64,000 nt of DNA from a virus. Each line of letters starts with the position of its first letter. Position 1 is the stretch's first letter. A program made the position numbers and the translations under genes. This document shows positions 50,049 through 57,947 of this stretch, in pieces. The stretch covers positions 1 to 64,000 of the IMG/VR virus record IMGVR_UViG_3300029286_001586; one strand, given 5' to 3'. Under the pieces are notes generated by a model. It made no database searches and was not told the DNA's origin. It was given only the letters and a program-made list of their open reading frames with translations.

Positions 50049-52742
50049 TTATTTTCCTCCTTTTAATTTGCATTTATCACTACACTTAATTTTCCATCCC
50101 AAACTTTTTATGAACGGACAAGCAAAGTGGTAAGCATCTCCGCTATAAACGGTTTTTACACAACTTTCAAGACCAAGTAAAAGATTTCCGTTCCTAGTAG
50201 ATGTTAATTTGGGGTCAATATTCTGGGTCCACTTAGTCAATAATTCAACACAGTCTTCTTCAGATACTTCCTGGTCTTTGTAGTACCCCGCCAAAACAAG
50301 AGTTGCCCTGTTTCTCGAACCCTTGACTTTTATTCCGTTCTCCAGTAAGTCCTTGACACAAACAGGAACGTAATCAGGTACGATTTTAAGCGTTGTTCTT
50401 TTATATTCTTTGGTCTTGTAATCTCTGAGCATATCATTAGCCCACTTTTCAGCCACGTCTATTTTAGACGCTACTCCAATTTTCTCCTTTTTCTTGGGCG
50501 AAACTGCGAGAGCCAAAATGTTGGTAATGTCTTCTCCTATCATTTTAATAGGAATAGTTATTTTAAATAGCCCCGATTTCATATTGGGGGTATTTTGAAT
50601 CCTGAGCATCTTTCTATTACCTGTTGCATTACAAAGGGTCTGTAACTTGAATTTGGTTCTTAATTTATTGTGGATATGTTCTATTTTCTTATGAAGGTCT
50701 GAAGATGGCTTAAAACCAAACACAGCTTCATCAACTATAATATGGAAACCCTTTGAATTTCCGCACCACATAGGTTTTCCGTTTCTTCTAACAAATATTA
50801 CACCAGTAGAAACTTCGCAACAATATACATTGTCATTATAAGGAACAAGTCCATATCCCCATCCAGTTCCAAGCGTGTTTTTTATATTATATTGATGTTT
50901 TGTTGATTTATTATAGGTTACTAACCACATATTTCCATCTTTTGTGACATTAGAAGCATATCCTAATCGCAAACATAGTTCATTTATATTATCAGCTAGT
51001 TCTTTTTGTATTCCTGGATATAAAACATTTTTGTTTTTGTCTCCATCCCCTAAATAAAAAGCATCGAAAAGTATTTTGAGCTGTCTTTTGGAAAGATTTA
51101 ATATATTTCTATCTATTTTTTTACACAAAACATTACAAAGCTGTTTATCATAAATCATTAAATAATTACAACCATTCGGATGCTTACTATATTTTACTTT
51201 ACTTCCAAAAATTCTTTTGGCTGAATTCCAAATTTTTTTAAAATTTTTCGTGTCTTTTTGACATATTGTTATTTCACAACTTCCTGCGTTTTTCCCTCTC
51301 TTACTTTTTCTCTTTCTGCTATATCCTTCGGATAACCAATATCCCAAAAATTCAAGCCAATCATCCATTTTAATTTTTTTGGCTGGTATTTTATATTTAA
51401 TTTTTCCTCCCCCGCATATTTTATAAGTTTCGGGCAAAACAAAATATTTTTGTTCTTTCCCTGTATGTTCTATTCCTCTATTAAAAATTAAATTAGACCT
51501 ATTTATTAGTTCTTTTATTGGTCGAAGTTCAAATTCTTTTTTATTATCTTTTTGGATTTGATGGTACATATTATGGTCTGGAGTAACTAGAATATCTATA
51601 AAACTAGATTTAAGATTATATAAATGTCCTTTGTATGGGAATTTTTGTATTGTTTGGGGGTATTCGTATTTTGTTGTGTTTTTGTGTTTAACAGCAACTT
51701 TATCTGTCGTTTGTAAATCTTTAAAATATTTCCACCCATTTTGAGTTAAAATTTCTGTGTCTTTGCTATAACATCCAGAAAATGATAGGTGTATCATATT
51801 ATCGGGAATATTGAGTCTAAACAGTTCATCTAGTATGTAGATAGCTTCTGCTTGTGCCTGACTTAAATCATCGACATCATCAACATCGAGGTCAAAGAAC
51901 AAGGGCATGAGGAAATCTTCGCCATATACTTTTTCAGCGTTCCTGAATTTCTGGACTGACATATATAACTCAGACCCACTATGTTCCCTAACAAAATGAG
52001 GAATTTGATTAGTCTTTAGTCTTAACCATTTACTCCACTTTTTCTCATTTTCAGAGTTCATGTAGGAGAAACATACTTCTTTATACATATAGTCTTTATT
52101 GTCTATTTCGTCCTGGGGCTTAGAAAACAGAGTATAAAACAAATCATCACTAAGAAGCGGTTTAATCCTGTCAGTGAACGCTTTTAGTCTTTCAAGCAAG
52201 TATTCAATATCGTAGTCTTCGGCATAGTCTTCCTTCAATTTGCATATCTTTTTCTTCTCGGTCGGCTTTGCAAAGTAGTAACCAACTTTGTTCCCAATCG
52301 GCACATTCTTATTTTTAGCAAGCAATACTTCATAAACTTGGTCTGATTTTATCTTATTAGCCTGATATGCGTTTAGTGAGCGATTTATTTCCCTGTGCTG
52401 AATGAATTCATTGAGTTCCATTTTACCACTCATGATAAGTTCTCTGAGAGTGAGATATCGTTCTCTTATTTTGTCATATTCCTTATTAAGAATGTCCCAA
52501 ATAGAGTCCCTGATAAAATCTTTACCAAACTTTTCAATCCCCCTGCTTCTAAAACTTACACCAGACATTTTAATCTTATTATCTTCAGTAACACGAATGT
52601 AATTCTTAGGCAAAATATTACAAAAGAATTTATAGTAAGCTAGGTCACAGTCTATTCCTTTTGGTAAAAAAGCGTTTATCTCTTTAAGCAAAGATTCGCC
52701 CTCTAGTTTATACTTTTTTATGTTTTTTTCTGTATTCAGCAT
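50049..52742 (-). CDS. PolB C-terminal part (KNY motif and thumb) fused to AEP primase and a PriL-like domain; intein-containing
   Basis: PKNY, SGVSFRSRG, YLLERL; FFDLDVD, FSG|SKGFH, RMLR-like KMLRI, GSRNRA, C-terminal Cys cluster. Confidence 0.75.
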   Translation of the reverse strand: MLNTEKNIKKYKLEGESLLKEINAFLPKGIDCDLAYYKFFCNILPKNYIRVTEDNKIKMSGVSFRSRGIEKFGKDFIRDSIWDILNKEYDKIRERYLTLRELIMSGKMELNEFIQHREINRSLNAYQANKIKSDQVYEVLLAKNKNVPIGNKVGYYFAKPTEKKKICKLKEDYAEDYDIEYLLERLKAFTDRIKPLLSDDLFYTLFSKPQDEIDNKDYMYKEVCFSYMNSENEKKWSKWLRLKTNQIPHFVREHSGSELYMSVQKFRNAEKVYGEDFLMPLFFDLDVDDVDDLSQAQAEAIYILDELFRLNIPDNMIHLSFSGCYSKDTEILTQNGWKYFKDLQTTDKVAVKHKNTTKYEYPQTIQKFPYKGHLYNLKSSFIDILVTPDHNMYHQIQKDNKKEFELRPIKELINRSNLIFNRGIEHTGKEQKYFVLPETYKICGGGKIKYKIPAKKIKMDDWLEFLGYWLSEGYSRKRKSKRGKNAGSCEITICQKDTKNFKKIWNSAKRIFGSKVKYSKHPNGCNYLMIYDKQLCNVLCKKIDRNILNLSKRQLKILFDAFYLGDGDKNKNVLYPGIQKELADNINELCLRLGYASNVTKDGNMWLVTYNKSTKHQYNIKNTLGTGWGYGLVPYNDNVYCCEVSTGVIFVRRNGKPMWCGNSKGFHIIVDEAVFGFKPSSDLHKKIEHIHNKLRTKFKLQTLCNATGNRKMLRIQNTPNMKSGLFKITIPIKMIGEDITNILALAVSPKKKEKIGVASKIDVAEKWANDMLRDYKTKEYKRTTLKIVPDYVPVCVKDLLENGIKVKGSRNRATLVLAGYYKDQEVSEEDCVELLTKWTQNIDPKLTSTRNGNLLLGLESCVKTVYSGDAYHFACPFIKSLGWKIKCSDKCKLKGGK
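50757..51773 (-). mobile_element. Intein (339 aa) with LAGLIDADG endonuclease, inserted in the primase SGxKGFH motif
   Basis: Begins CYSKDTEILT, VTPDH block B, FLGYWLSEG and FYLGDG, ends WCGN followed by Ser. Confidence 0.9.
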
Positions 52743-52781
52743 GATATTGCTTATACCTTTTAAGTTGTTTTTTATTTGGAA

Positions 52782-54308
52782 CTATTTTTCCTGTGATTGC
52801 CATGATTCTTTTGTTATATATACCCCGTCCGTGTCCCGCTCCAGTGTTATATATCCTTTCTTTGTTAGAAAATCGCACATTGTTTGCAGCGTTTCTCGTC
52901 CTATCTTTGTGACTCTGCTTGCTTCTTCCATGTCGTTCCATTGAAACACATTACTGCCCAACAGTCCATAGAGTGAGTTGATTAATATTTTAGTTGATTG
53001 TTCCTCTGCTTTATATCTCTCTAGTCCTGTTTCTTTGGCTTGCGCTTTCATACTGAATCTTAGGTCTGTAAGAGTTTTAAGCAGTTTAGGAAACACTTTG
53101 AATTTGTCTGATTTGGGACAGACATTATAATTCAACATGACTGATGGATAAAGCGAATTAACATCTAAATGATAGACATGTTCAAATATTCCTCTCTGTT
53201 CGGCTCCGACCATAGCACCTTCAAAATCTATTTTTTCCTGCTTGATAGGGATTGCATGTCCTTGTCTGTAATATTCCCTGACAAACATTCCTGTCATTTT
53301 CGTGGAAGAACTAGCAATACACACTTTCTCATAGTTCATAGGAAGCATTTGTGTCTGGTAGAAGTCTTTTTGTGTCAGTAATTTTGATAGATGGTCAACT
53401 GCCAAACAATCGTCCATACAATGCTTTATAATCAACTGCTTATCTGTTTTAAGAAATTCTGCTATCTTAGTTTTATCAATATTCATATCCTCGAACTTCT
53501 TACCAAATCGCTCTGATACATCATCGAGTTTATATGTTTCAAGTTCTCTGTAAATAGCATCCCAGGCACGAACAGAATAATATAGGTCAACACAATGCCG
53601 ACCCCAAATCTTAGGGACCATTATTTCCACGCTTTGATTATCACCCATACGAATATGGGTCTGGAACATATACATGTCGGAATTATTGCGTCCGATATTC
53701 GGTCTGATATCATGAACTGCTGCTCTATTCATGAGTAATTGAAAGTCGAAACTGAATCCATTATAGCTTTCAATAACATCAGGATTCAATCTCTTAATAA
53801 CTTCAAAAAAATGCTCGATGATAAAATTCTCATCACCGATTATGTAATCGCTTTTATCTCCGCAAGTATAACAGATAATTAATATCTCTGAATCAGTAAG
53901 CGATAGACCCGTTGACTCAATATTGAATTGTAAGCGTTTCAGGTCTTCATATTCCATTCCCTTGAATAGAGTCTTTCCTGTTTGAATCATGTACTGAGTA
54001 TTCATATCCGAAATTGTAAAGTGTTGGGGTTGTGCCAAACCATTGTTCTGTCTCAATGTTTTCATCAGGGGAAAAAACAATCGGGGTTCAATATAAGCCA
54101 AGATGTTATATCCGTCTCCCTGAAGTTCTTCATATTCTTTTTGTCCAATACGACTTAGCTGATTTTTAGAAGAAAGATAAAGAAATGGCTTAAACGCTTC
54201 TTTAAAAGTTTTACCATTCCTAAAGATAGTAGTTGCAGTTCCATTATTTACTTCAATAGATACTATATCCGTGGTCTCATTTTTTCCGTATATTAAAATA
54301 TCGTTCAG
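52782..54308 (-). CDS. polB: Family B DNA polymerase, N-terminal part (exonuclease plus motifs A, B, C); probable CTG start at 54308
   Basis: YNGFSFD, DVNSLYPS, KILINSLYG, DTDG; frame is open 69 codons upstream of the tracked start. Confidence 0.85.
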   Translation of the reverse strand: MNDILIYGKNETTDIVSIEVNNGTATTIFRNGKTFKEAFKPFLYLSSKNQLSRIGQKEYEELQGDGYNILAYIEPRLFFPLMKTLRQNNGLAQPQHFTISDMNTQYMIQTGKTLFKGMEYEDLKRLQFNIESTGLSLTDSEILIICYTCGDKSDYIIGDENFIIEHFFEVIKRLNPDVIESYNGFSFDFQLLMNRAAVHDIRPNIGRNNSDMYMFQTHIRMGDNQSVEIMVPKIWGRHCVDLYYSVRAWDAIYRELETYKLDDVSERFGKKFEDMNIDKTKIAEFLKTDKQLIIKHCMDDCLAVDHLSKLLTQKDFYQTQMLPMNYEKVCIASSSTKMTGMFVREYYRQGHAIPIKQEKIDFEGAMVGAEQRGIFEHVYHLDVNSLYPSVMLNYNVCPKSDKFKVFPKLLKTLTDLRFSMKAQAKETGLERYKAEEQSTKILINSLYGLLGSNVFQWNDMEEASRVTKIGRETLQTMCDFLTKKGYITLERDTDGVYITKESWQSQEK

Positions 54309-57125: not shown

Positions 57126-57947
57126 TTATAAATCCTTTATTAGATGATATTGTTTCTGGAAATTATGTTCCATTTGCAGTCCTGATGGTCCGTTCCTATT
57201 CTTTTTAACATCAACAGTAAGCACATCATCAACACTCCAGATAAAAAAGACTCTATGTGCGTCATATTCTTTGCTCCCACTTCCCTTTAGGTCCGATAGT
57301 TTGAAGTTCAATATAGTACGTTTTGATGCTTCTCTATTCATTGCAGTAACTGCGACAACAGGAATATTATATGTTTTTGTTATTTGCAACAAACCTCTCA
57401 TAATAGACGACAGTGCTTCATGAGTATTTTCTGAAGAACTCATTTCGGGCATAATATCAATATAATCTAACATTAATATGTTTGGTTTAAGTTCTTCAAT
57501 GACGAGTTCTATCTTTTCCATAGGAATATTTTCGTCAATAACAAACAGAGGAAGCTCTATTAGTTCAGCTTTCGCTTTTTTTATTTTGGCTTTATCTATA
57601 TCTTTAGTTATTTTTTTCGTCTTAAATATCATTGAATTGAGTTGTGTTTTATTTGAGAGCATATTAATACCAATTTCGTCCTGAAACACTTCATAAGTAA
57701 TTAAAAGAACTTTTTTGTTCTGCTCGGCGATATTCATAGCGAGTTGCAATAAAAACGTCGATTTTCCGCTGCCAGGCGAACCCGCAATTAACGTCAATTC
57801 TCTATTACCAAATCCTCCCAGCATGGTATCAATCTGTTTAAACCCGCTTTTAAGACCGACTTCTCCTGACTCAACACGTTTCATAACTCCTTCAGCAGAA
57901 GTTAATATCGAATTCATATTTTTTAGATAATTTGGTTCCTTGTTCAT
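57126..57947 (-). CDS. dnaB: DnaB-like SF4 helicase (RecA domain only)
   Basis: GSPGSGKST, LDYI, NRE, SDLKGSG..E.DA, KKNRNG. Confidence 0.85.
   Translation of the reverse strand: MNKEPNYLKNMNSILTSAEGVMKRVESGEVGLKSGFKQIDTMLGGFGNRELTLIAGSPGSGKSTFLLQLAMNIAEQNKKVLLITYEVFQDEIGINMLSNKTQLNSMIFKTKKITKDIDKAKIKKAKAELIELPLFVIDENIPMEKIELVIEELKPNILMLDYIDIMPEMSSSENTHEALSSIMRGLLQITKTYNIPVVAVTAMNREASKRTILNFKLSDLKGSGSKEYDAHRVFFIWSVDDVLTVDVKKNRNGPSGLQMEHNFQKQYHLIKDL

Follow-up and report, generated by a model that had tools for sequence, protein, structure and literature searches.

Can a phage polymerase gene that is interrupted by a stop codon just past its catalytic motif still provide a working enzyme, and if so, as one protein or as two? 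This question is raised by a gene for a family B DNA polymerase (PolB) fused to a primase, which is located on the minus strand of the first 64 kb (64,000 nt, hereafter the window) of the linear, 74,052-bp IMG/VR virus record IMGVR_UViG_3300029286_001586 of an uncultured phage. A preliminary description of the sequence had pointed out two polymerase open reading frames (ORFs) in one frame and separated by a single TAG, and this was confirmed here: the lone stop lies at 52784–52782, 14 codons past the DTD motif. Based on the size, position and reproducibility of the interruption and on candidate restart sites behind it, we favour, with moderate confidence, the reading that the PolB-primase fusion gene is a two-cistron split polymerase, the pieces of which would be made separately and reassemble.

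Layout of the interrupted polymerase gene

Piece A (54308–52782, minus strand) encodes 508 amino acids (aa), is terminated by the TAG, and comprises the N-terminal domain, the 3'-5' exonuclease and motifs A to C, namely the palm motif A DVNSLYPS, the fingers motif B KILINSLYG and the palm motif C RDTDG (52838–52824). Piece B (52742–50049, minus strand; 897 aa when counted from ATG 52742) continues with the end of the palm (LPKGI and KNY) and the thumb, followed by a primase domain of the archaeo-eukaryotic type with a PriL-like Cys-rich tail. An intein of 339 aa (51773–50757, minus strand) was found within the primase domain, displaying a Cys1 and a GN/Ser+1 junction (SFSG/CYSKDTEIL...MWCGN/SKGFHI, with slashes at the junctions). 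Its match to LAGLIDADG is weak and its junction residues are retained, while the homologue P0001 is without the intein and reads SFSGNKGFHI at that point.

Jointly, both pieces provide every PolB domain and motif once, in a complete set without redundancy. Piece B is open over 897 codons with all motifs kept, in a genome with a GC content of 35% (determined for the window), and neither a PolA nor a Pol III alpha was detected in the 74 kb. Since this PolB is the sole DNA polymerase detectable there and all 2.7 kb of piece B are intact, the interrupted gene is very probably in use.

Size, reproducibility and composition of the insert

The stretch between DTDG and LPKGI had seemed too long for a PolB, and alignment to uninterrupted homologues showed that it is: the spacing from DTD to KNY amounts to 73 residues, compared to 32–65 (median 47) in 44 homologues and 42–43 in the closest three. 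These nearest homologues (P0001, P0002, and P0123; 57–62% identical) are continuous through the interrupted region. The surplus is a lineage-specific insertion of 93 nt (52802–52710, minus strand; boundaries ±3 nt) that starts 8 codons past DTD and adds 31 codons, i.e., WQSQEK, the stop and FQIKNNLKGISNIMLNTEKNIKKY (FQ...NIKKY), between DTDGVYITKES and KLEGESLL. Deletion of these codons restores the homologue-like sequence DTDGVYITKES-(K)LEGESLL, so that the plausible PolB obtained earlier by removing 96 nt (52803–52708) had been sized correctly to within a codon.

The sequence is held by lake-water and freshwater metagenome runs. In four of these runs, each from a different sample, the Logan contigs carry the insert and the TAG letter for letter, with 0 differences, indels, or joints. 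Contigs X1 and X2, with depths of 11 and 15.5, respectively, cover the stretch from end to end and are possibly the record's own source, and X4 (52646–52906) and X5 (52673–52954) are short independent contigs. Since the contigs of four runs agree in every letter, an assembly or sequence error, one of the explanations proposed at the outset, was rejected; as contigs conceal rare variants, this concordance speaks for the consensus allele.

With 55% A and 26% GC, the insert surpasses 99.8% of the polymerase gene's windows of that size in A content, and its three frames contain 1, 5, and 0 stops. No copies were found elsewhere in the 74-kb genome, and an origin as a tandem duplication of the flanks was rejected, local alignment being no better than that of shuffles. 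A consensus scan of the insert revealed neither a sigma-70 promoter nor a terminator. The insert may derive from foreign non-coding DNA. Because its length is a multiple of three with one in-frame stop and the loop is variable in length within the family, the sequence also suggests an in-frame loop expansion that later gained an amber codon.

Within the insert, a complete 31-aa ORF in another frame (52803–52708) had been reported. The peptide (MAITGK...HKKV) is present, but its frame is open from ATG 52941, so that it represents the tail of a 77-codon off-frame ORF. Its own ATG has no Shine-Dalgarno site (−0.9 kcal/mol), and the peptide resulted in no Pfam or PHROG match at E ≤ 10 and only in unnamed neighbours in the Atlas. 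The polymerase gene alone contains five off-frame ORFs with 31 codons or more. Because of the missing ribosome site, the lack of relatives and these similar ORFs, we judge it to be a product of chance, aided by the T-poor composition of the insert, and as a gene, it was ruled out.

Position of the insert in the enzyme and in its relatives

Alignment to Pfu polymerase equated DTD with Pfu 541–543 and placed the insertion point after Pfu G551. The read-through polymerase domain, when modelled with AlphaFold, displayed one PolB fold with a predicted local distance difference test (pLDDT) score of 89.3 and a predicted template modelling (pTM) score of 0.81. In this model the insert, with a pLDDT of 48–65, is the sole low-confidence stretch inside the polymerase core and is located behind the second strand of the motif C hairpin and ahead of the following palm helix. 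As far as the natural split of the Methanothermobacter PolB is described in PMC3061061, it is located in the palm, about 83 residues past Pfu 467/468 and thus near Pfu 550. On this alignment, the insertion loop is the same loop as the one in which the Methanothermobacter enzyme is split, an equivalence that is based on the figure description in PMC3061061 and our own Pfu alignment rather than on a direct alignment to the Methanothermobacter sequences. The pol-c intein site (YGD/TDS) and the split of the Nanoarchaeum enzyme are near to the insertion, but not identical to it, being located about nine residues further upstream.

Two more distant relatives, P0124 and P0125 (41% identical to piece A), end 8–10 residues past DTD, i.e., in the same loop as the break. 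P0124 ends with ...DTDGVFVTREEWQ (...TREEWQ, compared to ...TKESWQ in the window) and P0125 with ...DTDGIYVCKEQ. They are encoded on contigs of 2.6 and 4.5 kb, and their ends may be either contig ends or signs that this loop is prone to recurrent breaks or insertions. It is intriguing that E-(S/E)-W-Q is shared with the window.

At the DNA level, searches of the phage collection, IMG/VR and the JGI metagenomes revealed no close relatives, and the GTDB genomes contained only 30%-identical cellular PolBs, in metagenome-assembled genomes of Armatimonadota.

Candidate starts of piece B and a putative two-cistron polymerase

Most genes of this phage are preceded by clear Shine-Dalgarno sites of the AGGAG type. 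Two candidate starts were identified for piece B. The first, ATG 52742, is in frame, 13 codons (39 nt) past the TAG, and lies in an almost unstructured A-rich stretch. The second (52703–52689, minus strand) consists of GAGGG (52703–52699), a spacer of 7 nt and TTG (52691–52689), five codons into the conserved sequence; with −6.3 kcal/mol, its ribosome site is of median strength for the genes of this genome, and a site as strong is found at only 6% of random ATGs. Either codon could serve as the start of piece B, by reinitiation or by fresh initiation.

A −10-like element, GGTATAAG (52757–52750, minus strand), is located 7 nt ahead of ATG 52742 and matches the phage −10 box GGTATAAT in seven of eight positions. 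Since the TG and the final T are missing and the CAACTT in the insert is 10 nt out of register, we did not count it as a promoter; it is a degenerate one at best.

We propose the following course for the split polymerase. About 93 A-rich extra bases in a surface loop, just past the beta-hairpin with the catalytic DTD, would have split the gene into two cistrons. Ribosomes translating piece A would terminate at TAG 52784–52782, and piece B, consisting of the palm remainder, the thumb and the primase with its intein, would be initiated separately, either at ATG 52742, by reinitiation or a fresh start on the unstructured A-rich leader, or at TTG 52691 behind GAGGG. The two chains would join non-covalently into one polymerase fold, and the intein would splice out of piece B. 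In this respect, we infer that the pieces are translated separately, assemble and are active. From the first explanation offered in the preliminary description, a homing-endonuclease remnant that had created a split polymerase restarting at ATG 52742, the split with this restart is the best supported of all options, but the insert and the off-frame 31-aa peptide matched no domain, and no endonuclease domain or fragment was found in or beside the insert.

Several observations weigh against a split polymerase. The Shine-Dalgarno site of ATG 52742 is weak and distant (−3.9 kcal/mol, equalled by 18% of random ATGs). The split was not seen in the closest relatives, so that there is no comparative sign of selective maintenance, and C-terminal half-proteins of relatives were found neither in the shorter nor in the near length ranges. 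Furthermore, an insert whose length is a multiple of three and which holds a single in-frame stop fits read-through or a recent nonsense mutation equally well, and the estimated completeness of the record is only 53%.

Comparison with known split polymerases

The split of PolB into two proteins is already known for this enzyme family. A split family B polymerase of Methanothermobacter thermautotrophicus was reported by Kelman, Pietrokovski and Hurwitz in 1999 (cited in PMC3061061 and PMC7776575). According to what these citing articles say of it, this enzyme and that of the window are alike in that the break lies in the palm a few residues past motif C (Pfu c. 550 vs. c. 551), the N-terminal piece containing the exonuclease and motifs A to C and the C-terminal piece the palm remainder and the thumb. 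By the same accounts, the Methanothermobacter pieces are encoded 85 kb apart, whereas those of the window are direct neighbours that share a frame, with 39 nt between them. The window differs further in that its enzyme belongs to a phage and its C-terminal piece is fused to an intein-bearing primase.

Among phages, gp43 of T4-like members is bicistronic, with cistrons 2 bp to 3 kb apart, and the split PolB is active (Petrov et al. 2006, 2010, as referred to in PMC3061061). In addition, Pfu polymerase split by translational termination-reinitiation revealed coupled translation and wild-type activity (PMC3061061). As far as the T4-like cases are summarized there, they share with the window adjacent cistrons that result from insertions in a phage PolB gene, and several of them carry identifiable insertion elements, whereas none was identifiable in the window. 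While the T4-like gp43 and the engineered Pfu enzymes are split in the fingertip, the break in the window is located past motif C. A further case is the B-family polymerase of PhiKZ and other chimalliviruses, which is split within a palm insertion, forms a stable 1:1 complex and, in PhiKZ, is active (bioRxiv 10.64898/2026.09.30.755723, PMC13648687). Both are thus phage B-family polymerases split in a palm-domain insertion, but in PhiKZ the fingers belong to the C-terminal piece, the genes (gp82 and gp50) are far apart and the lineage is unrelated.

If the split holds true, this would be a phage PolB broken at the loop behind motif C, a site formerly known as a natural split in one archaeon only. 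The break would be combined with a primase fusion and an intein, a further indication of the modular build of B-family polymerases and of their tolerance of breaks at a few surface loops. With regard to annotation, this locus will be called by pipelines as a pseudogene or as two or three fragments of a polymerase, and the true non-ATG start will be missed.

Alternative explanations

The alternative that survives best, which we nevertheless regard as unlikely, is an amber mutation that arose recently in a coding loop specific to this lineage and left the polymerase impaired or dead, the phage surviving by residual restart or read-through, or by means of a polymerase encoded in the unseen half of the genome. 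The in-frame insert with its one stop would fit such an event, as would the variation of the loop from 32 to 65 residues among homologues, the uninterrupted genes of the close relatives and the 53% completeness of the record. Yet all four samples share this allele as their assembled consensus, with a depth of up to 15×, no other polymerase was found in the replication module or the rest of the 74 kb, piece B is wholly intact, and the A content of the insert exceeds that of nearly all coding windows of the gene. A dead gene is hard to accept because this is the dominant allele of multiple samples in the sole polymerase. An amber mutation that is rescued by restart, on the other hand, shades into the split polymerase that we favour.

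Read-through or suppression of the TAG, which had also been among the options first considered, would yield one chain of c. 1400 aa with a floppy loop of 31 residues. Frame and length are kept across the insert, the AlphaFold model tolerates the loop, and a suppressor tRNA could be encoded in the unseen half of the genome. We consider this improbable, however. In all 74 kb of the 53% complete record, ARAGORN found no suppressor tRNA, the only tRNA being a tRNA-Met, and no RNA structure promoting read-through is present. Suppression would also lengthen at least 17 long ORFs with a terminal TAG, which are found in both modules and include that for an RtcB-type RNA ligase (63436–62210, minus strand). 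In this case the TAG is a genuine stop; the ATG of the next gene follows immediately, and the ORF of 114 aa that continues in the RtcB frame is unrelated; the C-terminus ahead of this TAG is presumably typical of the RtcB family. Translation with code 11 led to dense, complete and sensible gene calls across the window, while reading TAG as Gln mostly fused genes into their neighbours, and the PolB case is the one instance of an in-frame TAG inside a gene. Since TAG ends other genes, RtcB included, and no suppressor tRNA occurs in the 74 kb, the phage is not recoded, and genome-wide reassignment of TAG was ruled out.

A slim prospect is a single PolB-primase chain made without the known gene 60 signals, either across a new long bypass element (57–75 nt) or from an mRNA from which a segment is cut before religation by RtcB. 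Only if a single chain were shown to be made across the gap would the locus be of much greater import.

A yet slimmer prospect is a programmed bypass, in which a peptidyl-tRNA-Lys would take off at AAA 52787–52785 and land on one of two AAA codons downstream: the nearer one, at a distance of 57 nt, follows a repeated GAAAAA, and the other, at 75 nt, immediately precedes CTA 52706. Hops of the gene 60 type are defined by take-off structures, by a Shine-Dalgarno sequence ahead of the landing site, by a signal in the nascent peptide and by their location in MobA elements (bioRxiv 10.1101/2022.08.31.505936). Like T4 gene 60, with its 50-nt bypass in a MobA element, the window possesses a stop-containing insert that interrupts an essential replication gene and is flanked by identical codons. 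The features cited earlier in favour of bypass do exist: the stop directly follows the take-off codon, AAA recurs downstream (as does GAAAAA, which had not been mentioned), and a small GGAA/TTCC hairpin extends over the take-off site at the TAG. But with a stem of 4 bp and −3.0 kcal/mol, this hairpin is insignificant, 28 of 200 shuffles folding as well, and many competing AAA triplets occur in the gap, the first of them followed by TAA. The match between take-off and landing codons is thus not specific, because AAA is abundant throughout a gap of 55% A. In further contrast to T4 gene 60, the gap is longer, there is no unique landing codon, no Shine-Dalgarno-like sequence (GAG or GGAG) just 5' of either landing AAA, and no MobA-like cassette or nearby endonuclease gene, and the nascent peptide is unlike the gene 60 signal.

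Hardly credible, finally, is the removal of 93–96 nt from the mRNA by a small intron, or by endonuclease cuts and ligation through the phage's own RtcB, for although exact removal would restore the homologue-like sequence and the presence of RtcB is suggestive (no more than that), Rfam resulted in no match up to E = 10 within or beside the insert, its region folds no better than shuffles (z = −1.08), 93–96 nt fall short of the size of a group I or II intron, the junctions are not brought together by any flanking helix, and tRNA repair is the usual explanation for RtcB in phages.

Start of piece A, promoters and neighbouring genes

As far as about 38 kb of the window, the plus strand carries the genes for the virion, followed by the replication genes on the minus strand. 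For piece A, a start at TTG 54101 or ATG 54065 was ruled out. The frame is open upstream of TTG 54101 (54329–54100, minus strand) and encodes an N-terminal domain (NDILIYGKNETTDIVSIE...) aligning with Met1 of the homologues, and piece A runs from about 54308. At this homologous start, no ATG, GTG, or TTG is present; CTG 54308–54306 or ATT 54311–54309 is the likely start codon. A GGAG Shine-Dalgarno site (54319–54316, minus strand) lies 7 nt ahead of the CTG and 4 nt ahead of the ATT, and its −5.9 kcal/mol equals the median for this genome's genes. Upstream, an ORF of 97 aa (54598–54305, minus strand) with a hydrophobic N-terminus, but without a family match, ends with a TGA that overlaps the candidate CTG as CTGA. 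Because of this overlap, the sequence suggests coupled translation from a non-canonical start of piece A.

The polymerase operon is headed by a phage promoter (54634–54604, minus strand) composed of AGTCAACTTT, N12 and TGGTATAAT. The motif, (t)AGGtCAACTTT(t)-N12-TGGTATAAT, occurs in seven in-register copies that head early transcription units, namely at +1423, −64795, −61691, −57961, −54611, −49096, and −42898 (the sign denoting the strand; window coordinates except for 64795). At the genes starting at 57947, 54598, and 49084, the ATG is located only 4–6 nt past the −10 box (5 nt in the case of the 97-aa ORF), which suggests that the early mRNAs are leaderless.

One of these genes, an ORF for a DnaB-like helicase (57947–57126, minus strand) that starts 6 nt past its −10 box, encodes the C-terminal ATPase domain only. 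DnaB as a second split gene was dropped as a candidate: the upstream ORF of 165 aa (58477–57980, minus strand) has no family match and thus none to a DnaB N-terminal domain. Directly upstream of the polymerase operon lies a gene for a stand-alone DnaQ/RNase T-like exonuclease of 256 aa (55403–54633, minus strand), which was assigned to phrog_403, "DNA polymerase exonuclease subunit" (E = 2.6e-83), although piece A has an exonuclease domain of its own.

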